A stretch of 30,000 bases of DNA from Serratia sp. (in: enterobacteria) (GCF_046715635.1 NZ_JBKJYW010000348.1:3634-33633), one strand, 5' to 3'. Counted from the first letter of the stretch, positions 4,973 to 21,300 are shown. Made by a program: numbers and translations. The notes: generated by a model from the sequence alone, not told the origin.

Positions 4973-5932
4973 ATGAATAAGCAACCCGTCATTGGGATCA
5001 GCGGATGTTTAACCGGCTCGACCGTACGGTTTGACGGTGGACATAAACGCATGAGCTTTGTCATGGACGGGCTGGCGCAGTGGGTGACCTTCAAACCCAT
5101 CTGCCCGGAGATGGCCATCGGCCTACCCGCGCCCCGTCCGGCCCTGCGCCTGGTTCAGACCACCAAAGGGGATTTCCGGCTGCACTTCAGCCAAGCTCCT
5201 CACGACGATGTGACGGAAAAAATGGCCGAATTCACGGATTCCTATCTCTCACATCTGGACGAACTATCAGGCTTTATCGTCTGCGCGAAATCGCCGAGCT
5301 GCGGTATGGAACGCGTACGGTTGTACGATGAAAAAGGCAATCGCGGGCGTAAAGAGGGCGTGGGCGTCTTTACCAGGGCGCTGCTGGAGAAATACTCGTG
5401 GTTACCGGTAGAAGAAGATGGCCGCCTGCACGATCCGGTGCTGCGGGAAAACTTTGTCGAGCGCATCTTCGCCCTGCACGAGTTGAACACCCTGAAGGCC
5501 AACGGCCTGACCCGCCATGCGCTGCTGGACTTCCACAGCCGGTACAAACTCCAGCTGCTGGCACACCACCAAGCAGGCTACCGAGAAATTGGACCGTTTG
5601 TCGCCTCGTTGCACGAGTGGGAAGACCTGGACGCATTCTTCGTGGCTTATCGCGAAAAACTGATGACGATCTTGAGAAAACCCGCCTCGCGCAAGAATCA
5701 CACCAACGTGTTGATGCACATTCAGGGGTATTTTCGTAACCAGTTGAACTCACGCCAGCGCGGCGAGCTGAATAACGTGATCCTCCACTATCGCGAGGGG
5801 CTGCTGCCAATACTCGCTCCGTTAACGCTGCTGAAGCATTATCTGGGCGAATACCCAGACCGCTACCTGCTGACGCAAAAATACTTTGACCCCTATCCGC
5901 AGAATTTAGCTTTGCGGCTGGCGATTAATTAA
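4973..5932 (+). CDS. ybgA: YbgA family protein (DUF523 + DUF1722)
   Basis: 319-aa ORF. The N-terminus KQPVIGISGCLTGSTVRFDGGHKR and the later CAKSPSCGMERV match the DUF523 2-thiouracil-desulfurase-like half. The C-terminal half (HALLDFHSRYKLQLLAHH...NVLMHIQGYF) matches DUF1722. GAGGA SD 7 nt upstream. Confidence 0.8.
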   Translation: MNKQPVIGISGCLTGSTVRFDGGHKRMSFVMDGLAQWVTFKPICPEMAIGLPAPRPALRLVQTTKGDFRLHFSQAPHDDVTEKMAEFTDSYLSHLDELSGFIVCAKSPSCGMERVRLYDEKGNRGRKEGVGVFTRALLEKYSWLPVEEDGRLHDPVLRENFVERIFALHELNTLKANGLTRHALLDFHSRYKLQLLAHHQAGYREIGPFVASLHEWEDLDAFFVAYREKLMTILRKPASRKNHTNVLMHIQGYFRNQLNSRQRGELNNVILHYREGLLPILAPLTLLKHYLGEYPDRYLLTQKYFDPYPQNLALRLAIN

Positions 5933-5959
5933 GTGCGCATGATGAGAAGGTCAGAATGC

Positions 5960-5984
5960 CCCTGATAGGAGACCCTTATCAGGG
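5960..5984 (+). terminator. Hairpin after ybgA, a candidate operon terminator (weak U-tract)
   Basis: CCCTGATAGG-agac-CCTTATCAGGG. There are 8 contiguous pairs (5960-5967 with 5977-5984) plus 2 more with a 1-nt bulge, followed by TTTG. It is the only strong hairpin downstream of the 8-gene operon. Confidence 0.45.
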
Positions 5985-6182
5985 TTTGCCGTTGCCACTT
6001 CATACAACGCCAGCAGCGGCCCACATACAGCGTTTTCACCTTCATTGGGCTTTAGCACGTCATCCATGGAGTTTGAGTCGGTTTTGCTTGGTAAGTCAGT
6101 ACACTCGCAGTGTCTCCGCTGACATCCCGTTGCATTAATCAGCAGGGAGCAGATCACGGCATCGTTATAGATACTTTTACTG

Positions 6183-6881
6183 TCAAAACGGACAAGCATT
6201 ACGAGCCTTGATCAACTCCCCACTAATAGGATGAACAAAATCCAACCCACTGGCATGCAGCATCAGTCGAGGAGACCCTTCGGTGCCTGGCAGCAAGAGA
6301 CCGCCGTACAGGTCGCAGCCCAAAATAGGATGGTCTAGTTGCTGGCAGTGAATGCGAAGTTGATGGGTGCGCCCGGTTTCTGGGGTTAGCTCTACCCGCG
6401 TCAACGGCATTAACGTCCCGTCTCCCAACTCGCGATAAAAGCGCTCAACGACCCGATAGCGGGAACGAGCGGGTTTGCCGTGGATTGAGCAAATAGACAT
6501 TAGCGGGAACAGCGCCGGGTCTTTGGCAATCGCAGCGTCTATCACCCCTTGGTCATCGTCCAGATGTCCGCAGAGCAGCGCACTGTAAAACTTGGTCACG
6601 GTGCGCTGGCTGAACTGGTGGCAAAGAGCGGCATTGATAGCCTTATTGCGGGCAACCACCATCAGCCCGGAAGTGCCGAAATCTAGGCGGTGGACCAGGG
6701 TGCAGCCGGGGAATATCTTCACCAACCGATGATGCACCGAATCGAGATTTTGCGGATTCTTCCCCGAGAGGCTGAGCAGCCCGGCGGGTTTATCGATCAG
6801 CACCAGATGATCGTCCTGATAGAGAACCTCTATCTCGTCATGGCACGGCGGGGCAATAAAGGTATCGAGGATCGTAGACAT
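6183..6881 (-). CDS. RluA-family pseudouridine synthase
   Basis: 232-aa ORF. It carries VLYQDDHLVLIDKPAGLLS (the RluA N-terminal block), the catalytic-Asp motif VHRLDFGTSGLMVVA (HRLDxxTSG), and TGRTHQLRIHCQQLDHPILGC (GRxHQLRxH...GHPIxGD-like). By eye it is only about 35-40% similar to E. coli RluA, so I give no orthologue symbol. Confidence 0.85.
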   Translation of the reverse strand: MSTILDTFIAPPCHDEIEVLYQDDHLVLIDKPAGLLSLSGKNPQNLDSVHHRLVKIFPGCTLVHRLDFGTSGLMVVARNKAINAALCHQFSQRTVTKFYSALLCGHLDDDQGVIDAAIAKDPALFPLMSICSIHGKPARSRYRVVERFYRELGDGTLMPLTRVELTPETGRTHQLRIHCQQLDHPILGCDLYGGLLLPGTEGSPRLMLHASGLDFVHPISGELIKARNACPF

Positions 6882-6997
6882 CGGGCTGCCGGATGGAGAA
6901 TGAGGGCGGATAATAACGAATTTTCAGCCAACTGACGAATCTGGCTGACGTGGCGCTCCCCCAATGACGTAATCTGAACCCATCTATGCGCCCCCCT

Positions 6998-7019
6998 CTT
7001 TTATGCATCTGCATAAAAG
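6998..7019. promoter_or_regulatory. Perfect 10-bp inverted repeat (candidate operator) in the rluA-like / acyl-CoA ligase divergent region
   Basis: CTTTTATGCA-tc-TGCATAAAAG. The arms are exact reverse complements. It lies 117 bp upstream of the rluA-like start and 224 bp upstream of the ligase start. Confidence 0.35.
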
Positions 7020-7162
7020 CAAAACCCGTCACTCACCATTCCCATCATAATTTTTATCATTTTTGATAACATTTGCTAACCAGCACGTCATAACATCGAT
7101 TTTTTTGCCCTCCCCGGATTGGCATTTTATACAAAGCGTCGGCCCCGTTTGCCGAAGAAAGA

Positions 7163-7206
7163 TGTGAAATTTTGCGCATTCTTGCACCGTTGCCTTTCCC
7201 TATACT
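7163..7206 (+). promoter_or_regulatory. Candidate activator-dependent promoter of the acyl-CoA ligase gene: -10 TATACT plus a CRP-like site
   Basis: TATACT lies at 7201-7206 with no good -35 at 16-18 bp spacing (TTCTTG/ATTCTT). TGTGA-aatttt-GCGCA at 7163-7178 matches the left CRP half-site 5/5 and the right 3/5. It is centred about -42.5 relative to a TSS predicted near 7213, which is class II-like geometry. Confidence 0.3.
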
Positions 7207-7242
7207 CACCACCATCAGTAAATGTCGGTGAAGGGGCAAGCT

Positions 7243-8784
7243 ATGCAGCAGGTAAAAATCACACACCTCTATCAGAGCTTACAGCAGAGCGTTAACCGCC
7301 GGGCTGAGCATACCGCCCTGTTCTTTGAAGGCCACAAATACAGTTATAATCAGTTAAATCATAATGTTAATTTATCTGCCGCCTGCCTGAAAGAGAGTTT
7401 TAACCTCGCCAAAGGCGATGTGATCGTCCTGGCTCTGGGTAACCGACCTGAATTCTGCTCGCTGTTTTATGCAGCCATGGCGCTGGGGATTATCGTGGTG
7501 CCGTTAAGCACCAAGTTAAAATCGCAAGACAGCCATATCATCCTGTCCAGTGTTAATGCCAAGGCGGTGTTTTACGATCCCAACAGTCAGCCGTGGATGG
7601 CAGCGCTGGAACCCGTGAAGCAAAGCCATGTGGTGTCGCTGGCCGATTGGCAACTGATGCTCAGTAATGCAGATGACCAAAAGGTGATCCAACCCGTAGA
7701 GCCTGTCGCCATCGTAGCGGATGATATTGCCTCGATTATTTATACTTCCGGCACTACTGGCTCCCCGAAAGGAGCAGCGCTCACTCACGGTAACTTTATT
7801 GCGGCCATCACGGCTTATCAGCAGGCTCTGAAGTTAACCGAACAAGACAGCGCCATCCTGCCAATCCCCATCTGTCATATTACCGGTCTGTCGGCTCTGC
7901 TCTGCCTGTTTATTCACCTTGGCGGCACGTTGCATTTGCAGCAAAGGTTCAATGCAGAAGAGATCTTAAAAACCGTCAGCAGCCATAACATTACCTTCCT
8001 GCATGGTTCGCCAACGGTGTTTATCCTACTGTTGCAAGAAGCGGAAAAGTATCCACAGGTGGGGAACTACACCAGCTTGCGGATGATCGCTTGCGGTGCC
8101 GGGCATTTGAACGTGGGAATTATCGAAAGGCTCGCGCAGCTGTTCCCAGCTACGGAAATCAGGCCGATCTATGGGCTGACAGAAACCTCTTCACCGGCCA
8201 GCATTTTCCCGGTCGATGTTCGCAGCAGCGATAAGATAGGCAGTTCTGGCTTACCCATTCCCGGCCTGAGTTGCCAAATCCGCGACGATAATCTCCAGGT
8301 ACTTGCTGCCGGTGAAATTGGTCATCTGTGGCTGAAAGGGCCGGTGGTCATGAGCCAGTACTGGAAGAACCCGGCGGCGAATCAGCAGTTCTTCCACGAC
8401 GGCTGGTTCTACACCGGCGATATCGCCTGCCTCGATCAGGATAACTATTTGTATATCAAAGATCGCAGCAAGGACATGATCAACCGCGGCGGTGAGAAAA
8501 TATACTGCATTGAAGTGGAAAACCTGATCTCGAATTATCCTGGCGTCAAGGAAATTGCCATTGTTCCCAGCAGCAGCGAAATCTACGGAGAAGAAGCCGT
8601 CGCCTTTATTGTGGCACACCGGAATAAACCCTTGGTCAGCGATAATATTATTCACTGGCTCTCGAATAAAATCGCCAAATTTAAAGTACCTTCAAAAATC
8701 GTCTTTGCAGCAGAATTACCGAAAAATGCCAACGGTAAAATAGATAAATTGGCATTACGAAAAAAACTAACACCGCCAATATGA
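7243..8784 (+). CDS. AMP-forming acyl-CoA synthetase / fatty-acid-CoA ligase (class I adenylate-forming enzyme)
   Basis: The motifs present are IIYTSGTTGSPKGA (A3/P-loop), YGLTET (A5), GWFYTGD (A7), DRSKDMINRGGEKI (A8) and the C-terminal NGKIDK (A10 Lys). I chose the start at ATG 7243 (GAAGGGG SD 6 nt upstream) rather than track start 7222, which has no SD. Confidence 0.9.
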   Translation: MQQVKITHLYQSLQQSVNRRAEHTALFFEGHKYSYNQLNHNVNLSAACLKESFNLAKGDVIVLALGNRPEFCSLFYAAMALGIIVVPLSTKLKSQDSHIILSSVNAKAVFYDPNSQPWMAALEPVKQSHVVSLADWQLMLSNADDQKVIQPVEPVAIVADDIASIIYTSGTTGSPKGAALTHGNFIAAITAYQQALKLTEQDSAILPIPICHITGLSALLCLFIHLGGTLHLQQRFNAEEILKTVSSHNITFLHGSPTVFILLLQEAEKYPQVGNYTSLRMIACGAGHLNVGIIERLAQLFPATEIRPIYGLTETSSPASIFPVDVRSSDKIGSSGLPIPGLSCQIRDDNLQVLAAGEIGHLWLKGPVVMSQYWKNPAANQQFFHDGWFYTGDIACLDQDNYLYIKDRSKDMINRGGEKIYCIEVENLISNYPGVKEIAIVPSSSEIYGEEAVAFIVAHRNKPLVSDNIIHWLSNKIAKFKVPSKIVFAAELPKNANGKIDKLALRKKLTPPI

Positions 8785-8927
8785 AAGCAAGCGGTGTTTA
8801 ATTAAGTGCGCAAACATCAGGAAACGTGAAGCGCAACCATTAAAACAATAGAGCACCTGTACCTCTAACAATAATACAGAAAAGCTCTACCCTGTTTAAT
8901 CGCCTCATTACGAGGAGGAGCCTTATC

Positions 8928-10283
8928 ATGTCAAACCGGCCGTTAGATATTGCATCGAAAAGCCAGGCGGCAATAACGAATGCAAAAATATATAAACACC
9001 TGATGCCGTTACTGATCATTGTTTATATCATCAGCTTTATCGACAGAACCAATATCGGCATTGCCCGAGCCTCGATGTCCATCGATCTTGGCCTTTCCGC
9101 TACCGCCTATGGGTTGGGAGCCGGTCTGTTCTTTCTGACCTATTCCACCATGGAGATCCCCAGCAACCTGATTATGGCACGGGTCGGGGCCCGATTCTGG
9201 ATCACCCGCATCATGTTCACCTGGGGTGTGATTTCCGCCGGTATGGCCTTCGTCACCGGCCCTACCTCGTTCTATGTCATGCGTCTGTTGCTAGGGGCGG
9301 CAGAAGCGGGGCTGTACCCCGGTATCATCCTGTATCTTACCTACTGGTTTGGCCGTGAAGATCGCGCCAGAGCCGTCGGCATGTTCCTGCTTGGTGTCTG
9401 TATCGCCAATATTGTCGGGGCGCCATTGGGCGGCGCATTGCTGATGCTGGATGGCCTGGGTGGGCTGCACGGCTGGCAATGGATGTTTATCGTGGAAGGG
9501 CTCCCGGCGGTGCTGCTGGCATTTTATGTGTATGCCGTACTACCCAATAAACCACGCGATGCCAAATGGCTGACCAAAACCGACATTGAGTATATTGAAA
9601 ACAAGCTGGCCGCGGAGCAACCGGTTGGGGTAGATAAGAACCAGAAGTTTTCCTTTAAAACGGCGTTTACCAATAAGACCTTCATGCTGATCGTGGCGAT
9701 TTATTTCACCCATCAGATTTCGGTCTACAGCCTGACCTATTTTCTGCCCAGCATTATCAACAGCTACGGCAAAATGAGCACCCTGATGCTCGGCCTGTTA
9801 ACCGCCATTCCGTGGATCGCGGCAGCCTTGGGTGGCTTCTTCCTGCCCAAATATGCCAATACCGCCACCCGCTCACGCATCATGCTGGTGTCCGGCTTTA
9901 TGTCGATGGCCGTCGGTTTCCTGATTGGCGTGCTGGGTGGCCCAGTATTAGGGCTGATCGGCTTCTGTATCGGTGCTTCGATGTTCTTCGTCGTGCAGTC
10001 CATCATCTTTACCTACCCGGCCACGCTGATGAGCGGCCCCATGCTCGCTGGCGGGTTGGGGTTACTGGCTTGCCTTGGCATCACCGGCGGGTTCTTCGGG
10101 CCATATGTGTTCGGTCTCCTGGAGGATAGAACGGGGTCACCTAGCGCAGGCCTGTGGTTTGCCATCGTGCTGCAGACCCTTGCCATCATCGGGGCTGCAC
10201 GGGTGAAACAACCCGCAGGCAGCAAAGATAAACCGGCCAATCAATGCCCCCCGGCAGCAATGAATAGCGTGATTGAGAAATAG
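8928..10283 (+). CDS. MFS transporter, anion:cation symporter (ACS) family (tartrate/sugar-acid/aromatic-acid transporter-like)
   Basis: 451-aa ORF with about 12 hydrophobic segments. The N-terminal block YIISFIDRTNIGIA...L..S...YG.GAG.FF..Y...EIPSN and the LRLLLGAAEAGLYPG..LYLT.WF block are characteristic of TtuB/ACS-family MFS proteins. Strong GAGGAGGAG SD. Confidence 0.85.
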   Translation: MSNRPLDIASKSQAAITNAKIYKHLMPLLIIVYIISFIDRTNIGIARASMSIDLGLSATAYGLGAGLFFLTYSTMEIPSNLIMARVGARFWITRIMFTWGVISAGMAFVTGPTSFYVMRLLLGAAEAGLYPGIILYLTYWFGREDRARAVGMFLLGVCIANIVGAPLGGALLMLDGLGGLHGWQWMFIVEGLPAVLLAFYVYAVLPNKPRDAKWLTKTDIEYIENKLAAEQPVGVDKNQKFSFKTAFTNKTFMLIVAIYFTHQISVYSLTYFLPSIINSYGKMSTLMLGLLTAIPWIAAALGGFFLPKYANTATRSRIMLVSGFMSMAVGFLIGVLGGPVLGLIGFCIGASMFFVVQSIIFTYPATLMSGPMLAGGLGLLACLGITGGFFGPYVFGLLEDRTGSPSAGLWFAIVLQTLAIIGAARVKQPAGSKDKPANQCPPAAMNSVIEK

Positions 10284-10292
10284 AGCCTAAAC

Positions 10293-10312
10293 GCGGTGCC
10301 CTGGTGCACCGC
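10293..10312 (+). other. Intercistronic stem-loop between the MFS and CoA-transferase genes
   Basis: GCGGTGC-cctggt-GCACCGC, a perfect 7-bp GC-rich stem with no U-tract. It starts 10 nt after the MFS stop. Confidence 0.4.
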
Positions 10313-10334
10313 CGCACAGACGTAAGGTAGCAAT

Positions 10335-11912
10335 ATGAGAAATAAAGTCATTTCGGCTCAGCAGGCCGCAGAGTTAGTGAATAACGGCTCGACCCTGTGC
10401 ACCATCGGCATGACATTGATTGGGGCCGCGGAGTCGATCTTGAAAGCTCTGGAAAAGCGCTTTCTTGCAACAGGGGCACCGCACGGGCTGACCTATATTC
10501 ACTCTGCGGGGCAGTCGAATCGTGAGCGCGGTAATCAGCATTTTACCCCGCCAGGCATGGTAAAACGCATTATTGGTTCGCACTGGGGGCTGGCACCCAA
10601 GTGGATGGAAAAGATTGCCGCCAACGAGGTCGAAGCCTTCTGTCTGCCACAAGGGCAGATTGTCCATCTGTATACGGCCATGGCGGCCGGTCAGGCCGGA
10701 TATCTGTCCAAAGTGGGGCTAGGCACCTTTATCGATCCCCGCCTGGAAGGCGGCAAAATGAATACGTTGACCCGCTCCCTGCCAGATTTGGTGGAAGTGG
10801 TTAGCCTGCGCGAGGAGGAATATCTGTTCTATCCGGCACTCCCGCTGGATACGGTGATCATTCGTGGCACTACGGCGGATACCGCTGGCAACCTCACCTG
10901 TGAGGAAGAGGCCATGAAGCTGGAGATCCTGCAGGCGGTGCTGGCGGCTAAACGCTTTGGTGGCAAGGTGATAGTCCAGGTAAAAAACCTGGCGGAAAAA
11001 GGGAGTCTGCACCCGAAACAGATCGTGGTGCCGGGGAATTTTATTGATGCCATTGTGGTATGTGAAGACCCCGAGCAAGACCACCGCCAGACCTCTTCCT
11101 GGTTCTATGATCCAGCCTATTGCGGCAACCTGGTGACCCCTGCCAGCGCAGTGGAAACGCTGCCGCTCAACATCCGCAAGGTGATTGGTCGCCGAGCTTG
11201 TCAATTTCTATCCCCGGACTGTGTGATCAATCTGGGCACCGGTATTCCCAACGATGTTATTGGCACTATTATCCATGAAGAAGGGGTAAGCGAAGCGGTC
11301 ACCATCACGGTTGAATCAGGTATCTACGGCGGCGTACAGGCCGGTGGGGTTGATTTTGGCATCGGTAAAAACCTGACCGCCATGATTAACCATCAGGAGC
11401 AGATGCTGTATTACAACGGTGCGGGTGTGGATATTACCTATATGGGGGCGGGCGAGATGGACGCCAACGGGCATATCAACGCCACCCGCATGGGGGACCG
11501 CTGTACCGGGGCCGGAGGGTTTATCGATATCACCCAAAATGCACACCACGTGGTGTTTTGCTCCACCTTTACCGCCAAGGGGCTGGAGGTGGCATGCCAG
11601 CAAGGGCAATTAACCATTCTACAGGAAGGCTCGGTTAAAAAACTGGTGCGGTCGATTAACCAGATTTCCTATAACGGCGAAATAGCCCGCCAGAAAAAAC
11701 AAAAAATGCATTTGGTCACTGAGCGAGCAGTGTTTGAACTGACGGCGCAAGGTCCGATGTTGATAGAAATCGCCCCCGGCATCGATCTTGAGCGGGACAT
11801 CCTGCAACAAATGGAGTTTATGCCGCTGATTTCCCCCTCATTAAAACAGATGGACGCGGCACTATTTTGTGATGCCCCTTTTGGCCTGAAGGAAATGCTG
11901 GCCAGGCAGTAA
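10335..11912 (+). CDS. Acyl-CoA:acetate/3-ketoacid CoA-transferase, single-chain (YdiF-like family I CoA-transferase)
   Basis: 525-aa ORF. The length and blocks (ISAQQAAELVNNGSTLCTIG; GLTYIHSAGQ; IIGSHWGL; ITVESGIYGG, where the family's catalytic Glu is expected; GAGGFIDITQNA) match fused alpha/beta CoA-transferases such as E. coli YdiF, as I recall them. Confidence 0.85.
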   Translation: MRNKVISAQQAAELVNNGSTLCTIGMTLIGAAESILKALEKRFLATGAPHGLTYIHSAGQSNRERGNQHFTPPGMVKRIIGSHWGLAPKWMEKIAANEVEAFCLPQGQIVHLYTAMAAGQAGYLSKVGLGTFIDPRLEGGKMNTLTRSLPDLVEVVSLREEEYLFYPALPLDTVIIRGTTADTAGNLTCEEEAMKLEILQAVLAAKRFGGKVIVQVKNLAEKGSLHPKQIVVPGNFIDAIVVCEDPEQDHRQTSSWFYDPAYCGNLVTPASAVETLPLNIRKVIGRRACQFLSPDCVINLGTGIPNDVIGTIIHEEGVSEAVTITVESGIYGGVQAGGVDFGIGKNLTAMINHQEQMLYYNGAGVDITYMGAGEMDANGHINATRMGDRCTGAGGFIDITQNAHHVVFCSTFTAKGLEVACQQGQLTILQEGSVKKLVRSINQISYNGEIARQKKQKMHLVTERAVFELTAQGPMLIEIAPGIDLERDILQQMEFMPLISPSLKQMDAALFCDAPFGLKEMLARQ

Positions 11913-11989
11913 AAACGGGCGGCACGACATATTTATTATCTCTGCGCTAATTCAGCGTGGTCAGGAATTAAAACGATAAGGAGTACCCT

Positions 11990-12727
11990 ATGTGTTTAAC
12001 AAATAAAGTGGCTATCGTCACCGGGGCCAGCCGTGGTCTTGGGCGAGGCATTGCCCAGGTATTGGCTGAAAAAGGGGCCGCCGTAGTTATTTGTGATGTC
12101 GACCAGGACGGCGGCAATAAAACCGCCGCCGAATTGGTGAGCGCGGGCCATACAGCTATTTTCATCGCCTGTAATATTGCCAACCGCGAAGAGGTTAACC
12201 AGTTATTTATTGCCGCGGAGCAGCAACTGGGGCCGATAGATATTCTGGTCAATAACGCCGGGATTAACCGTGATGCCATGTTGCACAAGCTAACGGAAGA
12301 GAATTGGGATCTGGTGATGGATATCAACCTGAAAGGGACCTTCCACTGTATGCAGGAAGCCGCCGTACGCATGCGTGAGCGCGCCTGCGGGCGGATCATC
12401 AATATCTCGTCGGCCAGCTGGTTGGGCAATGTGGGGCAGGCCAACTATGCCGCTTCAAAAGCCGGGGTGATCGGCCTGACCAAAACGGCCTGCCGGGAGC
12501 TGGCAAAAAAAGGGGTTACCGTTAACGCCATCTGCCCAGGCTTTATCGAAACCGATATGACCCGCGGAGTACCGGAAAAAGTATGGGATATCATGATCGG
12601 CAAAATTCCCGCAGGTTTCGCTGGCGATCCGGTTGATGTCGGCCATTGCGTCGCCTTCCTGGCTTCCGACGAGGCACGCTATATCAACGGCGAAGTGATC
12701 AACGTTGGCGGCGGCATGGTGCTGTAA
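11990..12727 (+). CDS. SDR-family 3-oxoacyl-(ACP/CoA) reductase (FabG / PhaB acetoacetyl-CoA reductase-like)
   Basis: 245-aa ORF with TGASRGLGRG (TGxxxGxG), NNAG, the catalytic YAASKAG (YxxxK) and PGFIETDM. By eye the overall block pattern is close to PhaB/FabG. AAGGAG SD 6 nt upstream. Confidence 0.9.
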   Translation: MCLTNKVAIVTGASRGLGRGIAQVLAEKGAAVVICDVDQDGGNKTAAELVSAGHTAIFIACNIANREEVNQLFIAAEQQLGPIDILVNNAGINRDAMLHKLTEENWDLVMDINLKGTFHCMQEAAVRMRERACGRIINISSASWLGNVGQANYAASKAGVIGLTKTACRELAKKGVTVNAICPGFIETDMTRGVPEKVWDIMIGKIPAGFAGDPVDVGHCVAFLASDEARYINGEVINVGGGMVL

Positions 12728-12737
12728 GGAGAATCGA

Positions 12738-13922
12738 ATGAAAAATGCAAATGACATTGTCGTCGTCAGCGGCGTACGCACGGCGATCGGCACCATGGGC
12801 GGTAGCTTTAAAGATACGCACCAGCATGATTTAGGCGCAGCGGTGATCCGTGAAGCCGTGGCCCGTGCCGGGCTGCAACCAGCACAAATTGATGAGGTGG
12901 TGGTAGGTAACGTCGGGCAAATCGCGGAGAGTGGTTTTATCGCCCGCATTTGCCAACTGCGCGCTGGCTTACCGAACGAAACAACGTCCTATTCGGTGAA
13001 CCGCCAGTGCGGTTCGGGTCTGCAAGCGATTGTCGATTGCATGCTGGAACTGCAAACCGGCAATGCCGAGATCACCGTCGCCTGTGGGACAGAGAATATG
13101 ACTCAACTGCCCCACTATATTCGCAAGGCTCGTTACGGTTATCGCCTTGGGCACGGAGAGCTGGAAGACGGCATCGTCTCTATTTTAACCTGGCCGGAAG
13201 GCCCTTATCACAATGGCATGACCGCCGAATTCGTCGCGGAGCGTTTTAACATCAGCCGTGAGGCGATGGACGAGTTTGCCTGGTGCAGCCAGCAAAAAGC
13301 CTTGGCAGCCATCAAAGAGGGGCATTTTACCTCACAAATCCTGCCGCTGGAGGTTCGTGAAGGCAAGAACAGCCGCCTGTTTGCCACTGATGAACACCCA
13401 AGGGATACGCCGAAAGAGAAGTATGCTCAGCTGAAACCGGCGTTTAAAAAAGACGGCACGGTTACGGCAGCAACGTCATCAGGTATCAATGATGGGGCCG
13501 CCGCGCTGGTTGTCACTACCCGAGCCAACGCTGAAAAACTGGAGCTGCCAATCAGGATGGTGATCCGCGGTTGGGCAGTGGCAGGTTGCGAGGCAGAAAT
13601 CATGGGCTTTGGCCCAGCTCCGGCAACTCGTAAACTGATGCAAAAGTTGAACATGTCGGTGCATGATATCGACCTTATTGAGCTTAATGAGGCCTTTGCC
13701 GCCCAATCATTGGCGGTGATTAACGATCTGGAGCTGGATCCGGCCAAAGTGAACGTCAATGGGGGAGCAATTGCGCTGGGGCACCCTGTTGGGGCCAGCG
13801 GGGCCATCATCGCTGTAAAACTGATGTATGAGATGGAGCGCCGCGGCGTCAATACCGGTTTAGCCACCATGTGTATCGGTGGAGGCCAAGGGATCTCTAT
13901 GCTGTTTGAGCGGGAAAGGTAG
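12738..13922 (+). CDS. Acetyl-CoA C-acetyl/acyltransferase (thiolase II-like)
   Basis: The motifs present are VNRQCGSGLQA (nucleophilic Cys), NEAFAAQ, NGGAIALGHPVGASG (His) and CIGGGQG (C-terminal Cys). The start is ATG 12738 (MKNANDIVVVSGVRTAIG, AAGGAG SD), not track start 12705. 394 aa. Confidence 0.93.
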   Translation: MKNANDIVVVSGVRTAIGTMGGSFKDTHQHDLGAAVIREAVARAGLQPAQIDEVVVGNVGQIAESGFIARICQLRAGLPNETTSYSVNRQCGSGLQAIVDCMLELQTGNAEITVACGTENMTQLPHYIRKARYGYRLGHGELEDGIVSILTWPEGPYHNGMTAEFVAERFNISREAMDEFAWCSQQKALAAIKEGHFTSQILPLEVREGKNSRLFATDEHPRDTPKEKYAQLKPAFKKDGTVTAATSSGINDGAAALVVTTRANAEKLELPIRMVIRGWAVAGCEAEIMGFGPAPATRKLMQKLNMSVHDIDLIELNEAFAAQSLAVINDLELDPAKVNVNGGAIALGHPVGASGAIIAVKLMYEMERRGVNTGLATMCIGGGQGISMLFERER

Positions 13923-13950
13923 TCTCTTAAGTTAGCGCAATAGATATTTC

Positions 13951-13977
13951 CGGCCCTCTGCCAAAGAGAGGGTCGGA
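13951..13977. terminator. 10-bp stem-loop after the thiolase gene (possible terminator or REP-like element; no U-tract)
   Basis: CCGGCCCTCT-gccaaag-AGAGGGTCGG, with 9 Watson-Crick pairs and 1 G.U. There is no T-run on either strand. The core CCCTCT..CCAAAG..GAGAGGG resembles the hairpin of the 22238-22431 repeats. Confidence 0.35.
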
Positions 13978-14107
13978 TGGCAAACATCGGCTTACGCATT
14001 GAGTTAACTGAATTGTATTAAGTTTAATACGTAGATTTGTTGATGGGTCAATAAGGTTACCGTGAAATTGGCAAGAAACATTCGATATTATATTTAACCC
14101 CCCTCAC

Positions 14108-14113
14108 TATAAT
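14108..14113 (+). promoter_or_regulatory. Consensus -10 hexamer (TATAAT) upstream of the CdaR-family gene
   Basis: Perfect TATAAT 23-29 bp upstream of the two candidate start codons. The -35 is poor (ATATTA at 17-bp spacing). The surrounding intergenic region is AT-rich. Confidence 0.3.
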
Positions 14114-14135
14114 AGAGGTTTTATATCATAAAGGT

Positions 14136-15302
14136 ATGAGTATGCTGATCACCTTAGAGCTGGCTAATACCATTGTGAAACGAGCGATGAGTATTATCCA
14201 TTATAACGTTAATGTTATTGACCATCAGGGCGTAATTATCGCTTCGGGCGAACCACATAGGATCGGTGAACGGCATGAAGTGGCCTTTGAGGTGATAAAG
14301 AACCGCCAGCGGATGACGATAGAAAATGCTCAGCAGGCGGCCCGGTACAAAAATGTGCAACCCGGTATCAATCATCCGATTATCGTGGATGATCAGGTGG
14401 TTATGGTGATAGGTATCAGTGGCAATCCCGCCGCGATTGCGCGTTACGCCGAGCTGGCCATCTTGGCGGCAGAGCTGTTGATCAAACAGTCTTTAGCTAT
14501 CCGGGAAATGAACTGGCAATACCGTATCAGAGATCTATTGCTAAAACAGTATCTTGAGGTGGGCGATACTGACAAAGGCAAGGAAATACTTCACCAGTTG
14601 GTACAGCAAGAGATTGACCTGTCACAACCCCTGTTGCCGGTATTGATCAATATTGAAACCGGCGGGCATTTATTGGGGCAAACCATCGATCACATCCTCA
14701 ATAAACTGTCACATATTTTAAAATCCCAACGGGTAATATTGCTCAGCAATGATGAGATCCTGTTAATTATCACCGCGATCGAACAGACCGAAGCCACGGT
14801 TAAAGCTATGAACGCCTTTATGGAAACTCAGCTGAGCCATTACACTATTGGCATTGGGGTAGAGTCAGGCTCTGCTGGGATTTTCCGCCAATCGGTATTT
14901 ATGATCAAAGAGATGATAGAACATGCTCGGGAGTCGTTACCACAATCGCGGGTCATTAACGGCCAGCAGTTTGCCTTCAGCGGGTTGTTGAATGAAGCCA
15001 GAAGCAGCTCATTTACCCTTTATTTCAAACAGAGAATCGATAAATTACTGATGCTGAGCACCGGTCAAATGCTGCTCAACACTTTGAGTACCTATATCGC
15101 ACACAATGCCGAACTGGCAAACGCTGCGCGGGAACTTGGGGTACATCGCAACACGCTTACCTATCGGCTTAATCAGATCAAAGAAGCGACGTCGTTGGAT
15201 CCGTTTAATTTCAAGGAACTTAGCCAACTGATGATTTCGCTTTACTATCATCAGGGGACGCGGCTGTCTAATGCGGCGGCTGGCACCAACGATCCCCAAT
15301 GA
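14136..15302 (+). CDS. CdaR/SdaR-family transcriptional regulator (N-terminal sugar-diacid-recognition domain, C-terminal PucR-type HTH)
   Basis: The N-terminus ANTIVKRAMSIIHYNVNVIDHQGVIIASGEPHRIGERHEVA parallels E. coli CdaR (AQDIVARTMRIIDTNINVMDARGRIIGSGDRERIGELHEGA). The C-terminal A.ELGVHRNTLTYRLNQIKE.T.LDP.NF matches the PucR-type HTH (IHRNTLEYRLNRI). ATG 14142 is an equally plausible start with better SD spacing. Confidence 0.88.
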   Translation: MSMLITLELANTIVKRAMSIIHYNVNVIDHQGVIIASGEPHRIGERHEVAFEVIKNRQRMTIENAQQAARYKNVQPGINHPIIVDDQVVMVIGISGNPAAIARYAELAILAAELLIKQSLAIREMNWQYRIRDLLLKQYLEVGDTDKGKEILHQLVQQEIDLSQPLLPVLINIETGGHLLGQTIDHILNKLSHILKSQRVILLSNDEILLIITAIEQTEATVKAMNAFMETQLSHYTIGIGVESGSAGIFRQSVFMIKEMIEHARESLPQSRVINGQQFAFSGLLNEARSSSFTLYFKQRIDKLLMLSTGQMLLNTLSTYIAHNAELANAARELGVHRNTLTYRLNQIKEATSLDPFNFKELSQLMISLYYHQGTRLSNAAAGTNDPQ

Positions 15303-15511
15303 TGTGTCTGGAGAGGTTGCTACGATCCACTCACCCTCTTTGTCAGAAAACATCATTATTCACCCGAATAACCGCACAGTAAAATCAGTATATTCATTAA
15401 GTTATGGAATGATATGATTATGACTGAATGACTAGCTGTTATCACCATACTGACCATCATCAGCCCGGGGCCGAATTCTGCAATGGTTAACAAACAAAGG
15501 AAGGGGTAAAG

Positions 15512-15970
15512 ATGGAAATAAGCTGGCAGGCATTGAAGGGCAGCAGCCTCAGCGCGCAGCAGTTGCATGATATTCTGGCACTGCGCATGGCGGTGTTTGT
15601 CGTAGAGCAGACTTGCCCGTTTCAGGATATTGATGGACAGGATCTGCTGAATAGTACCCTTCACGTTGCCGGATACCGCGACGGTAAGCTTGTCGCCTAC
15701 GCGAGAGTGCTGCATGTGGATGATTCTCTGGATGCGGCCAAAATCACGCGAGTGATTGTTGATGATTCCGTCAGGGGTCAGAAGCTGGGTGTCAGGCTGA
15801 TGGAAAAAACGATGTCCTTAATCCACCGTGACGAACCGGGCAAGGCGATAAAGCTCTCAGCACAGTCTCACCTCGTCAAATTCTATGAAGGATTCGGTTT
15901 CAAAACGGTATCCGACGAATACCTTGATGATGGCATACCCCATATGGATATGGAGTCTACGGACGCGTAA
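15512..15970 (+). CDS. elaA: GNAT-family N-acetyltransferase ElaA-like
   Basis: The 152-aa ORF aligns along its full length with E. coli ElaA as recalled (W..L....LS..QL..IL.LR.AVFVVEQ.CP.QDIDG.DL......H..G.....LVAYAR.L......D.....RVIV....RG.K.G..LM......FY..FGF..V...Y.DDGIPH..M). AAGGAAGGGG SD. Confidence 0.85.
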   Translation: MEISWQALKGSSLSAQQLHDILALRMAVFVVEQTCPFQDIDGQDLLNSTLHVAGYRDGKLVAYARVLHVDDSLDAAKITRVIVDDSVRGQKLGVRLMEKTMSLIHRDEPGKAIKLSAQSHLVKFYEGFGFKTVSDEYLDDGIPHMDMESTDA

Positions 15971-16030
15971 TCCAGGCTGGGCCTTATCCGGTTTCACATT
16001 GATGTAGCGCGCCAGCTGTAATTAGCTTTG

Positions 16031-16076: not shown

Positions 16077-17522
16077 TTACGCCGTGCCGCCCACGGTAAG
16101 TGAATCCAGCTTCAGCGTCGGCTGGCCAACCCCTACCGGCAGGCTCTGCCCTTCTTTACCGCACACGCCCACGCCCTTATCCAGCGCCAGGTCGTTGCCC
16201 ACCATCGAAATCTGCTGCATCGCCTCAATGCCTGAACCGATCAGCGTGGCCCCCTTCACCGGCTTGGTGACGCGGCCATTTTCGATCAGATAGGCTTCAG
16301 AGGTGGAGAAGACAAATTTCCCGGAGGTGATATCAACCTGACCGCCGCCAAAGTTCGGCGCATACAGGCCATACTCCACGCTGGCGATAATATCTTCTGG
16401 CGTCGACTTGCCCGCCAGCATGTAGGTGTTGGTCATGCGCGGCATTGGCAGGTGTGCATAAGACTCGCGGCGGCCGTTACCGGTAGGCGCAACGCCCATC
16501 AGCCGTGCGTTGAGCTTATCTTGCATATAGCCTTTCAGAATGCCTTTCTCGATCAGCACGTTGTACTGGCCCGGCACGCCTTCGTCATCGATCGCCAGGG
16601 AACCACGGCGGCCTTGCAAGGTGCCATCATCCACCACGGTGCACAGCTCAGAAGCTACTAACTGACCCATCTGGCCGCTGAATACCGAGGTGCCACGGCG
16701 GTTGAAGTCACCTTCCAACCCGTGACCGACCGCTTCATGCAGCAACACCCCAGGCCAGCCCGCGCCTAGTACCACAGGCATGGTGCCCGCCGGGGCCGCC
16801 ACGGCAGAAAGGTTAACCAGCGCCATACGCACCGCTTCTTTGGCAAAAGCATCGGCACGGACTTCGCCATCCACCACTTCCAGGAAGTAGTCATAGCCAA
16901 AACGGCCACCGCCACCGCTGGCTCCGCGCTCACGCTTGCCGTCTTCTTCCACCAGCACGCTGACGGAGAACCGCACCAGCGGGCGAACGTCCGCCGCCAA
17001 GGTGCCATCCGTTGCCGCAACCAATATCTGCTCATACACACCGGTGATGCTAGCCGTCACTTCCTGCACACGCTTGTCTGCAGCACGCGCGACCTTGTCT
17101 ACCCGATGCAATAGCGCGATCTTCTCTTCCCGCGGCAGGCTTTGCAGTGGATCGAGCAAAGGATACAGCGCCTGATAGCCGATCTCGCCCAGCGTATGGA
17201 CTTTGCCATTGCCGCTGTCACGCACAATGCTGCGAGCAGCCTGAGCGCTTTGGTTCAGGGCATTCAGGGTGATTTGGTCTGCATAGGCAAAGCCGGTCTT
17301 TTCACCGCTGACCGCGCGTACACCAACGCCCTGATCGATATTGTACGAGCCATCTTTAATGATACCGTCCTCAATCACCCAGGCTTCGTGGTAGCTGGAC
17401 TGAAAATAGAGGTCGGCGTAATCGAGGCGGCGTTCGGCCAGTCGACCCAATACGGAAAACAGGTCTTGATGACTCAGCTTATTCACAGCGAGTAACTGCT
17501 CACTGACAAACGACAGGCTCAT
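16077..17522 (-). CDS. tldD: Metalloprotease TldD
   Basis: Near-colinear with E. coli TldD (MSL..VSEQLLA...[46 protein letters not shown]) and carries the metal site [13 protein letters not shown]. The start is ATG 17522, giving 481 aa as in E. coli. Track start 17534 is a GTG overlapping the upstream stop. Confidence 0.95.
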
Positions 17523-17530
17523 AATTTTTT

Positions 17531-18388
17531 TCACTCTTTATTGGAGGAGTTTTCAACCGGCGCAATCAGCGTCGGCTGGAATCGGTTGTGCTGCATCACC
17601 GGCATCTGTTTGCGGATGGTATGCAACTTGCCGGTATCCACGCGCACTTTCAGCGCGGAGACCGCGTCGGGGTTTTCTGCCCGCACATTACCCCAGCTGT
17701 CTACCACCATGGAATGTCCCCAGGTGCGGCGGGTGGCTCCGTGGCGGCCCACCTGCGCGGGAGCCAGGATCACACACTGGTTCTCGATAGCGCGGGCGCG
17801 CAGCAAAATCTCCCAGTGTGCCTCACCGGTCACGCGGGTAAATGCGGCGGGCACCGAGATCAGTTCCGCACCTTGCGCGCGCAGCGCCTGATACAGGCCA
17901 GGGAAACGCAGGTCGTAGCATATCGTCATACCCAGGCGGCCCACCGGCGTATCGACCACCGTCAATTGTTGGCCATGCTGATAAGTATCCGACTCGCGAT
18001 AATGGGCGTGTATATCATTGATATCCACGTCGAACATGTGCAGTTTATCGTAACGGCCACGGATTTCGCCCTGGTCGTCAAACAGCAGGCTACTGGTGGT
18101 GATGCGTGCCGGATCTTCGCGGCTGATCAATGGCATAGAACCCACCAGCAACCATACCCCATAACGGCGAGCCATATCGCGCACCGCCTGCTGCAACGGC
18201 CCGTGACCTTCCGTTTCCGCATGTTCACGGTAGGCGGCCGAGTTGGCAAACAGTAAGGCGTTCTCCGGAGTCATCACCAGTTTTATCCCTGGATTGAGCT
18301 GCTTGATCTGCTGTTCAATCTGGGCCAGGTTGTCCCGTACCTGCTCACCGCTACACAGCTGTAATAACGCAACGTTAGCATTTTTCAT
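17531..18388 (-). CDS. Carbon-nitrogen hydrolase (nitrilase superfamily, Nit1/YbeM-like amidase)
   Basis: 285-aa ORF with the nitrilase-superfamily Glu-Lys-Cys triad contexts: VMTPENAL (Glu), RYDKLHMFD (Lys), [11 protein letters not shown] (Cys). It also has the later AFT...[15 protein letters not shown] block. Its ATG overlaps the yhdP stop (ATGA). Confidence 0.85.
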
Positions 18389-21300
18389 GGCGACTTATCC
18401 TCTTTTGGCTTACGCAACACCTCATGAATACTTGGGTGGTCCAGGCTACCGGTAATGTTGTAGCGGATCAGCGAGATCTTGTTCCACAACGGAGCCAGTG
18501 CCTTGGAGGCCGCAAACACCGCCGCCCCCACAATCGGGTTGATCACAAACGCGGTCGCTACTCCCACCGTCGCCGAGATCTCTGGCGCGATTACGGCCTG
18601 CATATCAATCTGGCGCTTCACCAGGTCAATCTGGCCGCTCATGGCGATATCGGCCGCCAGCCCATCCACCAGCAAGTTATCTGTATGCATTATGCCATCT
18701 TTCGCCCAGATAGTGCCGCGTATGGAGTCAAAGTAAAATCCGTTGCCGAAGGTATCACGGAAGTCGAACTGCAATTTGCGCAGCAGGGCATCGAAGCTGA
18801 CCAGGCGTAACAGCTGTCCGGCCCGGCCACCGCCGACGTTATCGATCTCACCTTTACCCAGATCGACCTTCATGGTGCCATTGAGCGTGCTGATCTGCGG
18901 TTTCCATGGCTGCCCGTGCCAGTGCAGATCAAAATCGATATCGTAAGGTGCATCTTTTAATGGAATGATCATGCCGAAGAAACTGGCGGTGCGATCGATT
19001 TTGCTGCCCAGCAGCTTGCCCTTTAACCCACTACGCTCTTCCTGAGCGTTCTGTTTCCACAGGCCGGTGGCGCTCATGCGGCCATAGCCGGTATCCACCA
19101 GGCCATGGCTTAGCACCAGCGAGTCACCTTCGCGTTTGAGATCAGCCTCTACCGTGCCAAGGTTCTGCCCCATCATCCAGCAGGATTTACAGCGCAACAT
19201 CAGTGAAGGCCAATCCTGGAACGAGATCCGCTCCGCCGAGTCCAGCGGGTTGGTACCGCCTGTACTGCCGTCGCCGCTGGTAAACTGCGGGTTGTAGTAA
19301 AGATAGCCGAGATCCGCGCGCCACACGCCGTTATCCGGCATCGACAGGCTGCCATCAATCTCTTTGCCCTTGGCGGTCACCTTCGTTCCTGCCAGCTGCT
19401 GTTCTACCGCAAGCTGCAGGTTATGCCACGCCTGCCCGCCCAGCGTCAGCTGTGGGGTTTCGAGCGTTACGCTGGTTGGGAACACAAAGTTGCCCACTTT
19501 GCCTGCGCCGTTGCCTTGTTTCATCGCCGGAGCCACTAACCCCAGCCATTGTTCGCCATCCAACGCGGGCAGATTGAGCACCAGGGATTTGTTTTTGGGT
19601 AGCGGTGGAGTTGCCGAGCCGCCTGTTTGCCAAGCGGCACGTGCCAGCGTCACCTGCTGTTTGGCCAACAGCCATTCGCTGTTGAAGTGGTTTTGCTTGC
19701 CCGCGCTGCCATTGAGCATAAATCCTTGCAGGCCGCCGTTCACTTTTACGCTAACCGGTAACGCTTCCCCCGCGGATTTGTTAAGAGGAGAAGGTAAGTG
19801 ACTGCTTACTTTTTTCAGATCGGCATTGACACCAATCTCATAGCTCGGCTTGCCTTTATGCGGCAGATTGATCGCCACTTTACCTTGCCAGGCGGCGCTG
19901 CCAGCCAACAGTTTGGCAAACTCGGGCGGCAGACCGTCAACCTTGGCTGGTTGCCAATCGCCTTTCAACCCAACGTTAACCTTATAATCCTGTTTACCTT
20001 CCAGCGTATCGAAGTTGACCGCCAGCGGCTGCCCAAACCAGTTGGCCGTCAGGGTATCGCTTTGCAGGTTGCCGTTGTTGAAGCGGAACTTGCCGCTCAC
20101 TCTCTCAAGCTGACTTTCCAGCGGCTTGACCAGCAGCGAGTTGTTGTTCAGCGTGACTTCACCGCTGGCGTTAACCAGTTCGCCATCCAATGGGATATTT
20201 AGATGTAAGCGCCCACTTACATTGCCCCCTACCTGCAACTCATCTAGCGCTGCCCCGACCGAATCATCCAGTGGGGTCTGCATGAAATAGTCGTGAATAG
20301 CTTGCCCGGTGCCCGCAACATCGGCATCAATCAACAGGCGTTCTTTGCGATAGTCCGGAATGACGGCGGTAATGTTTCTGCCCGTCGCGTTGCCCAGTTT
20401 GGTTTGCGGCGCATTCATCCACAGGCCGCTGTTGGCAAAATCGAGATCGATCGCCAGATCGTTCAGCGCTGGCCACTCCGGCTGGAACTGGAAGGTAGCG
20501 TGGCGTAGTGGGACAAACACCTCAAACTGTCCTTCGTTCTTCTCATACGGGAAGTGCTGCGGATTGCCCGCATAGATCAGAGTAGCATTATCAACCTGCC
20601 CGCCCTGGATTGCCCCGCTGAGATAATCCACCAGATGTTTACCCATCAGCGGTTCAGGGAAATAACGCCAGGCATCGGCACCATCATACAAACGGATGCC
20701 AGCCAGAATATCCAGCCAAGGCTCGCCGTTAGCCGGTTGCTGATAGCGGAAATCGCCGTTAACCCACAGGGATTTGGCTTGTACGTCCAGACTTTGACTT
20801 GCCAATTGCCAGCCTTGATCGTTGTTTTGCCAGGTCAATGCCCCGCTCGCACGGCCGATCTCCAACGGTGCCCGGAACATATCGCCATAAGGCAGCGTGC
20901 TGTTGTTCAGCCCCAGCGTCAGACGGCCATTTTCTACGCTCCCGGTTAACGCGCCGGAAAAGTGATCGACACCCGGCAACAGTTTCCAGTGTTGCCAGCT
21001 CAGATCCTGCCACCACGCCTGAAAACGAGTTTTTTCCGGCTGTTGCAGCGGGATATCCAGCGCCAGCGCCCTGAGCATGCCGCGAGGTTGTAAGTCTTTC
21101 CAGCGCTCCAATACTTCCGGGCTGAGGAACGAGAAGGTGGGTAGCAACGCTTCCAGCCGTTCCAACTGGATGCCGGTGGCACGGATACGCAGTTCTTCAC
21201 TCTGGTTTGGCCCGATAAATTGGGTATTTTCCGGCAACCACAGCGCGGTGAGGGTTCCTGGAGCCCAGGTTTGGCCATCGGTTTTCAGGTTCAGCGCAGG

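Follow-up and report, generated by a model that had tools for sequence, protein, structure and literature searches.

What does a run of six co-oriented genes in a Serratia genome, each of a familiar family and together encoding a transporter, a regulator and four enzymes of CoA ester metabolism, allow its host to use? The genes occupy positions 7243-15302 of a 30,000-nucleotide stretch of Serratia sp. (GCF_046715635.1, NZ_JBKJYW010000348.1:3634-33633), which is here called the window and comes from a Serratia fonticola-type genome; relatives with names hold the same DNA at 93-95% nucleotide identity. An earlier reading, made from the sequence alone (the sequence-only reading), took this block for a horizontally assembled accessory island that would break down (or reversibly process) an imported hydroxy- or keto-carboxylate. 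We propose that the block is probably a compact, self-regulated cassette for the CoA-dependent catabolism of 2-deoxy-D-ribonate (3,4,5-trihydroxypentanoate), a waste product of the DNA sugar. The proposal builds on direct observations: the gene content and its intact catalytic motifs, gene-for-gene homology and a sister-clade relation to a Klebsiella-type cluster, the linkage of its transporter, and its accessory distribution.

Pfam and NCBIfam searches confirmed the six genes, all on the plus strand, at the positions and in the families that the sequence-only reading had given. The first (7243-8784) encodes an AMP-forming acyl-CoA ligase (PF00501 and PF13193), the proposed deoxyribonate-CoA ligase, with intact TSGTTGSPK, YGLTE and C-terminal GK motifs. 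Its start at 7243, as first called, is correct because a stop closes the frame of the longer open reading frame (ORF), which begins at 7222, in Serratia sp. L9. It is followed by a major facilitator superfamily (MFS) transporter of the anion:cation symporter (ACS) family (8928-10283; TIGR00893-like), the proposed deoxyribonate importer, and by a single-chain family-I CoA-transferase of the YdiF type (10335-11912), proposed to convert glyceryl-CoA to glycerate. The transferase aligns with E. coli YdiF, an acyl-CoA:acetate CoA-transferase (2AHU), over residues 4-518 (E = 1.9e-111). The two proteins share the single-chain family-I fold over its full length, with both subunit-like halves in one chain, and the transferase residue E327 aligns with the catalytic glutamate of YdiF, E333. 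The relationship is nonetheless distant: a YdiF-like paralog encoded by the Serratia genome shows 38% identity, a long tree branch sets such paralogs apart, and the gene contexts differ.

The remaining enzymes are equally well preserved. A classical short-chain dehydrogenase/reductase (SDR; 11990-12727), the proposed 3-hydroxyacyl-CoA (deoxyribonyl-CoA) dehydrogenase, retains the TGxxxGxG, NNAG and YxxxK motifs. Its Asp36, at the end of beta-2, is conserved in six of the six homologs compared; an Asp at this position is the signature of NAD preference in SDR classification, and its conservation therefore fits an NAD-dependent oxidative role. The thiolase (12747-13922) scores 447 bits against TIGR01930 (cutoff 240), contains both thiolase domains (PF00108 and PF02803) and has all of its catalytic residues, Cys88 (CGSG), His346 (GHP) and Cys376 (CIGGG). 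The last gene (14136-15302) encodes a CdaR/SdaR-family regulator with a PF05651 Diacid_rec domain (residues 6-137) and a PF13556 HTH_30 domain (residues 313-369). This N-terminal Diacid_rec domain and the PucR-type helix-turn-helix are also found in E. coli CdaR (SdaR). However, the cassette regulator is tied to CoA-thioester enzymes rather than to glucarate and galactarate genes, and it scores 150 bits against the CdaR equivalog model, whose cutoff is 612.

A system with this set of activities has been described genetically in Klebsiella. In K. michiganensis M5al, an acyl-CoA route for 2-deoxy-D-ribonate was proposed from transposon fitness for the cluster BWI76_RS23695-RS23730 (Price et al. 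2019, mSystems, PMC6365646). The genes there are ordered CoA-synthetase, CoA-transferase, beta-hydroxyacyl-CoA dehydrogenase, thiolase, MFS, lactonase, MFS, glycerate kinase. The cluster was important on deoxyribonate and in 0 of 92 other conditions; an MFS of the RS23715 type was strongly required, and the lactonase and the second MFS had milder phenotypes (PMC6365646). A CdaR-family regulator, such as follows the cluster in Klebsiella-type relatives, is not discussed in that study (PMC6365646).

Clusters of this kind were recovered by a family-wide search with the window's transferase, which picked up a further set of loci with identities of 62-70%. The eight-gene M5al order, followed by a CdaR-family gene, is present in one of these Klebsiella-type loci (L085) and across two metagenome contigs combined (L101 and L102). 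A 90%-identity cluster, with 2,619 sequences and names drawn from K. pneumoniae, K. michiganensis and Salmonella, includes the MFS of these two contigs. When the Klebsiella type is compared with a Pseudomonas cluster of the order SDR, beta-keto acid cleavage enzyme (BKACE), lactonase, MFS, MFS, identity is 67% for the lactonases and 58% and 69% for the two pairs of MFS proteins. These lactonase and MFS identities agree with the relationships reported for P. simiae (PMC6365646).

All six block genes are homologous to the Klebsiella-type cluster. Compared with L085 and L102, the ligase is 50% identical, the transferase 69%, the SDR 72-75% and the thiolase 78-79%; the MFS is 61% identical to the first Klebsiella-type MFS, and the CdaR-family regulator 46% identical to the one that closes the Klebsiella-type cluster. 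No other gene of the genome comes near the block genes in these comparisons; the next-best paralogs reach 29% for the ligase, 38% for the CoA-transferase, 35% for the SDR, 51% for the thiolase, 38% for the MFS and 30% for the regulator. In a tree of CoA-transferases, the Serratia-type and Klebsiella-type proteins form sister clades (support 100/98), and a branch of length 1.38 parts both from YdiF-like paralogs. The sequence-only reading had called the identity of the substrate unknown, which, given this homology (46-79% over the six genes), it probably is not. Its further remark that it knew of no characterised operon with this exact composition is contradicted in part. The core gene set is that of M5al, which was characterised by genetics rather than biochemistry; the gene order differs, and the Serratia block is short of three accessory genes.

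The two arrangements thus have a common core and distinct peripheries. Common to both are the ligase, the single-chain CoA-transferase, the SDR, the thiolase and the first MFS (50-79% identity), a CdaR-family regulator, attached to the cluster in the Klebsiella-type relatives, and the status of an accessory cassette without mobility genes. The Serratia cassette differs in placing the MFS gene between the ligase and transferase genes, in its promoter motifs, and in lacking the SMP-30-type lactonase, the second MFS and the glycerate kinase. Elsewhere in the genome, a single unlinked gene resembles the lactonase, at 32% identity, and no match to the second MFS was found at E <= 1e-20; both genes are missing from some Klebsiella-type loci as well. 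An unlinked glycerate kinase gene is present at C209:5763-6857, beside another CdaR-like gene. In Budvicia, Pragia and Leminorella, the gene order is that of the window (transferase identity 82-87%), with a gene of about 1.2 kb between the thiolase and CdaR genes. This gene was confirmed as a glycerate kinase in Budvicia aquatica, and the other Budviciaceae copies have a gene-sized gap at the same place.

Several observations concern the Klebsiella-type loci themselves. Among 5,426 complete E. coli genomes, the sole match was strain GF4-3, in which a Klebsiella-type cluster (NZ_CP053258.1 1872707-1882882; locus L095) lies between mhpR and cynX, in place of lac. It contains the ligase, the transferase, an SDR named FabG, the thiolase, the MFS, the lactonase, a frameshifted second MFS and the CdaR gene, and has no glycerate kinase. 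In some Klebsiella records, an MFS and the following lactonase were called as one protein of 645 aa (for K. pneumoniae, AMA25180.1, P0053; PF07690 and PF08450), which is probably a read-through or an annotation fusion. The co-occurrence of both cluster types per genome was considered as a test of their equivalence and set aside as uninformative, because so few genomes carry either type (8 and 9-10 of 401).

The transporter provides a line of evidence independent of enzyme homology. Eight MFS relatives at 55-65% identity were selected by host so as to span phyla, with their gene contexts as yet unseen, and all eight proved to lie in beta-keto-acid-cleavage (deoxyribonate-type) clusters. A BKACE enzyme is encoded in six of these clusters (those of Pseudomonas, Caballeronia, M. 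smegmatis, Rhodococcus, Arthrobacter and Parasphingorhabdus), and a CoA-dependent thiolase set in the other two (the Klebsiella type and Providencia, both with glycerate kinase). Over the eight, glycerate kinase is found in five and an SGL lactonase in three. The window MFS is 56-62% identical to the MFS of the BKACE-type clusters in Pseudomonas, Caballeronia and M. smegmatis. Two enzymologies that share a transporter and converge on glycerate are what would be expected if the element common to them is the substrate.

The comparison with the oxidative pathway of the P. simiae WCS417 type, which consists of an SDR deoxyribonate dehydrogenase, a BKACE, a lactonase and two MFS, makes this convergence explicit. 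The two systems have in common the transporter orthogroup (56% identity to the Pseudomonas MFS) and the release of an acetyl unit and glyceryl-CoA, which then gives glycerate. In the WCS417-type pathway, however, the free acid is oxidised and then cleaved by BKACE, whereas the Serratia cassette would use CoA esters and a thiolase. The SDRs are just 28% identical, and the regulators of BKACE-type clusters are of the GntR or LacI type, in contrast to the CdaR type of the cassette.

From the sequences and their relatives, we infer what the substrate is, in which order the steps proceed, what each CoA enzyme does and which ligand and site the regulator uses. The MFS permease would import deoxyribonate, and the AMP-forming ligase would convert it to deoxyribonyl-CoA, a 3-hydroxyacyl-CoA. 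The NAD-type SDR would oxidise this ester at C3 to 3-keto-deoxyribonyl-CoA, which the thiolase, together with CoA, would split into acetyl-CoA and glyceryl-CoA. The YdiF-type CoA-transferase would then strip CoA from glyceryl-CoA, leaving glycerate. By extension, the transferase might pass this CoA to a fresh acid molecule, with the ligase merely priming the cycle and ATP being spared; such recycling would explain why both activation chemistries have been retained. The unlinked glycerate kinase would finally phosphorylate glycerate for entry into glycolysis. The CdaR-family protein would control the operon, plausibly via a palindrome at the cassette border, with participation of a CRP-like site.

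With the cassette, the CoA-dependent deoxyribonate cluster family gains a compact new member, whose pathway had already been proposed. That proposal came from transposon fitness only, and the CoA-dependent route is not known to have been reconstituted. GapMind lists deoxyribonate oxidation with the glyceryl-CoA hydrolase step still missing, and does not include the CoA-dependent route. No smaller self-contained version was seen among the copies viewed: the cassette packs five structural genes and a regulator into 8.3 kb, and is therefore a convenient unit for transfer to E. coli K-12 and for enzymology. Its analysis also corrects annotation, as routine labels (FabG, long-chain fatty-acid ligase or MFS transporter, for example) mask a sugar-acid pathway.

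A number of facts weigh against deoxyribonate as the substrate. The Klebsiella pathway rests on mutant fitness rather than enzymology, and no published enzymology for it was found in the literature searched. The phenotype data behind it come from Klebsiella. The link to M5al was drawn through gene order, lactonase and MFS identities and the presence of a K. michiganensis protein in the 90%-identity cluster. The Serratia cassette also does without three genes of the reference cluster (lactonase, second MFS and glycerate kinase), and the proteins that likely set specificity are the most diverged, with the ligase at 50% and the regulator at 46%.

These last points suit an alternative in which the logic is the same (import, CoA activation, 3-hydroxy oxidation and thiolysis) and the substrate another, be it a different 2-deoxy-aldonate, a stereoisomer or one of the short 3-hydroxy acids, of which 3,4-dihydroxybutyrate is an example. 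The Serratia/Budviciaceae clade would then be a specificity variant of the Klebsiella cluster, in keeping with the split of the two arrangements into distinct clades and the absence of the lactonase and second MFS from the Serratia block. We regard this as unlikely. The divergence of the ligase and the regulator is by itself no sign of a different substrate, because these are the fastest-evolving genes within each clade: between Serratia and Budvicia, both are 73-74% identical, against 92% for the thiolase. The in-cluster glycerate kinase of the Budviciaceae copies points to a glyceryl remainder after cleavage, and therefore to a C5 2-deoxy acid. The transporter, moreover, is as near to the deoxyribonate-type transporters of M. 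smegmatis and Pseudomonas as it is to that of Klebsiella. In a more elaborate version, to which we give similarly little credence, the Serratia/Budviciaceae/Citrobacter clade would be a non-deoxyribonate variant that senses, by a CdaR-type protein of its own, and degrades some other sugar acid of the 3-hydroxy or 2-deoxy kind, with the ligase only priming a CoA-recycling loop run by the transferase. If true, that loop would represent an ATP-sparing thioester cycle, for which no precedent among sugar acids is known.

The names given to the individual enzymes by family models might also suggest a module for ketone bodies or short-chain acids (acetoacetate or 3-hydroxybutyrate, as in ato-like systems), or a reversible route to acetoacetyl-CoA of the PhaA/PhaB type. 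The thiolase matches BktB and acetyl-CoA acetyltransferase models best, the SDR matches FabG and PhaB-like models, and the transferase family acts on short acids. Yet those equivalog models, among them PhaA, PhaB and BktB, all score under their curated cutoffs. The SDR carries no NADPH-only signature; it has the NAD-type Asp36 but also Arg15. A transporter of this family, a CdaR regulator and, in sister copies, a glycerate kinase are a poor fit to C4 ketone bodies, and the homologous Klebsiella cluster had no phenotype in the 92 other conditions. A ketone-body role is accordingly very improbable, and a PHB-type role unlikely.

Still less probable is an accessory set for fatty-acid degradation like the FadX-containing fad operon of staphylococci. 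This idea draws on the best NCBIfam match of the transferase, Staph_FadX, and on the matches of the ligase to long-chain fatty-acid ligase models. These scores are far under the respective cutoffs (412 bits vs 750 and 387 vs 476), the block encodes no acyl-CoA dehydrogenase or enoyl-CoA hydratase, and neither an MFS of the anion:cation symporter type nor a regulator of the sugar-diacid kind suits fatty acids.

Is the cassette a regular part of Serratia genomes? The whole block is present in 8 of the 16 species genomes of the genus, this one included, and in at least four chromosomal contexts, a distribution that makes it accessory. A catabolic role in the use of an imported hydroxy-carboxylate, as the sequence-only reading had it, is likewise supported. 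The six genes are kept together across Serratia, Budvicia, Pragia, Leminorella and Citrobacter. Comparison of copies in differing contexts places the start of the shared homology at 6991-6999 and its end at 15256-15277, within the last ~15 codons of the regulator gene. The transferable cassette can accordingly be set at 6991-15270 on the plus strand, 8.3 kb made up of a control region and the six genes.

The contexts are varied. In S. fonticola GTA-SR07 and RP0009, the order is ybgA, cassette, GNAT gene, 3.8 kb of other DNA and tldD. Serratia sp. H1w and a Serratia metagenome-assembled genome have rluA, cassette and tldD. Serratia sp. L9 carries the cassette at the same site, inverted. In S. 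aquatilis, it lies elsewhere, between fimbrial and glycosyltransferase genes. Among the Budviciaceae, neighbours were named for Budvicia aquatica only, in which the cassette is downstream of trkA, with rpoA further on. In the L9 copy, the match to the MFS gene (L044 8594-9945) is split between two frames, at 8594-8893 and 8890-9945. A frameshift is the likely cause, and the cassette may be decaying in that strain.

In the window, the cassette occupies a variable hot spot (5944-16020) between a ybgA-like gene (4973-5932), its left flank, and tldD (16077-17534, minus strand), its right flank. Homology to the closely related genome G005, to S. fonticola GTA-SR07 and to RP0009 breaks at 5943 and resumes at 16021-16024. 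The flanks of G005 are ~95% identical to those of the window, and the gap between them holds 1.9 kb of unrelated AT-rich cargo. This cargo (G005:C86, joined from L011 and L021) consists of two AT-rich hypothetical genes of 167 and 235 aa.

Two further modules share the hot spot with the cassette. To its left lies a gene for an RluA-family pseudouridine synthase (6183-6881, minus strand; Pfam and NCBIfam matches) in a separate module of ~6136-6990, which adjoins the cassette in Serratia sp. H1w-type genomes and is absent in S. fonticola GTA-SR07. To its right, a PRK10314-like GNAT acetyltransferase gene (15512-15970, plus strand) forms another module (~15277-15976) outside the pathway; it is found 3' of the cassette only in S. 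fonticola-type genomes and is absent in H1w-type genomes, L9 and S. aquatilis. The window layout of rluA, cassette and GNAT thus combines modules that are found separately in relatives.

No tRNA and no border direct repeat was found at the cassette borders, and no integrase or transposase next to any cassette copy examined, as the sequence-only reading had reported for the borders in the window. By the classical view the block is no genomic island, as it lacks mobility genes, tRNA and repeats and has GC content and codon usage within the normal range. The region downstream of tldD in Serratia is thereby documented as a recombinase-free hot spot for the swapping of cargo.

The sequence-only reading had also described the block as compositionally mosaic and horizontally assembled, on the strength of GC counts made by hand. 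Those counts, on three 60-nt lines, were exact (17, 20 and 41). The end genes are indeed more AT-rich than the flanking core: GC content is 0.496 in the ligase gene, 0.470 in the CdaR gene and 0.54-0.56 in the middle four, vs 0.565-0.585 in the flanking tldD and yhdP. Relative to the genome, however, none of this is unusual. The block as a whole has a GC content of 0.518 vs 0.533 for the genome (27th percentile among 8-kb windows), the ligase and CdaR genes lie at the 18th and 12th percentiles, and the codon-usage distances of the block genes span the 19th to 79th percentiles of the genome's long ORFs.

The pattern of a low-GC ligase and regulator recurs in every host compared. In Budvicia, for instance, the ligase and regulator genes have GC contents of 0.40 and 0.36 vs 0.47-0.48 for the middle genes, and the regulator is the lowest-GC gene in nearly all Klebsiella-type copies too. 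Overall cluster GC tracks the host: per-gene values are 0.33-0.46 where the host is richest in AT and 0.61-0.64 where it is richest in GC. Because the pattern recurs across hosts, the mosaic look is intrinsic to the genes and no trace of patchwork assembly. Composition was therefore rejected as a sign of recent or piecemeal transfer, the GC, GC3 and codon-usage percentiles being ordinary and the pattern common to all hosts. The notion of a horizontally assembled mosaic is likewise not supported: the six genes move as one unit, their low-GC pattern is independent of the host, and divergence between lineages scales alike for all six.

The history of that unit is less simple than its composition. 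A recent transfer between Serratia and the Budviciaceae is not evident, because the cassette proteins diverge about as much (68-93% identity) as the core proteins TldD, Rng and MreC (74-86%). One genome, G291, is nearer to Serratia in its core proteins (87-89%) and farther in its transferase (80%), a pattern that does not agree with simple vertical descent. In the CoA-transferase tree, the Serratia copies fall inside a grade of Budviciaceae copies. The nesting of the Serratia copy within the Budviciaceae copies is borderline, with p = 0.045 in an approximately unbiased (AU) test in which G291 was grouped with the Budviciaceae copies, a group defined after the tree had been seen.

How the cassette may be controlled can be outlined from its upstream region. 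Its left border coincides with a perfect 10+10 palindrome, CTTTTATGCA-TC-TGCATAAAAG, at 6998-7019, which is a candidate operator. The palindrome is invariant in five Serratia copies whatever their left neighbour, and a degenerate form, TTTTATTCATTTGCACAAAA, is present in the Budviciaceae copies. It occurs once in the window, and no second copy beyond chance was found in the block. Between the palindrome and the ligase gene lie a CRP-like site, TGTGA-N6-GCGCA (7163-7178, plus strand), and a putative -10 element, TATACT (7201-7206, plus strand), both invariant in the Serratia alignment; Budviciaceae retain TGTGAAACTTTACAC and CTATACT. The CdaR-type regulator could plausibly bind at 6998-7019.

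The regulator gene is set apart from the thiolase gene by a 213-bp AT-rich spacer (GC 0.376), which may serve as a separate control region. A hairpin at 13950-13976 (plus strand), 3' of the thiolase gene and within this spacer, is no clear terminator because no T-run follows it. No Rfam family reaches its threshold within the block. In nine Klebsiella-type loci, the region before the ligase gene (e.g. L085 7560-7640) conserves other motifs, TTGTGCAAnGTTACAA and TTGTTGTGA, along with a TAGACT -10. These motifs differ from the Serratia-type palindrome and may be the CdaR-type operator of that clade.

Three minor features of the window remain to be described. An imperfect direct repeat (18 of 20 positions) pairs 5920-5939 (GGCGATTAATTAAGTGCGCA) with 8793-8812 (GGTGTTTAATTAAGTGCGCA); each copy spans a stop codon, of the ybgA-like gene and the ligase gene respectively, and the first stops 4 bases short of the hot-spot border (5943). 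The repeat could be a recombination scar or a product of chance, for which a rough probability is ~0.05-0.1. A 119-aa ORF on the minus strand (15356-15715) overlaps the start of the GNAT gene, has no family match and is probably no gene. Finally, antisense inside the yhdP gene, positions 20099-20515 (plus strand) match Rfam RF02736 (Rev11) at 99.9 bits, above the gathering score; Rev11 is an antisense RNA of soft-rot Enterobacteriaceae.

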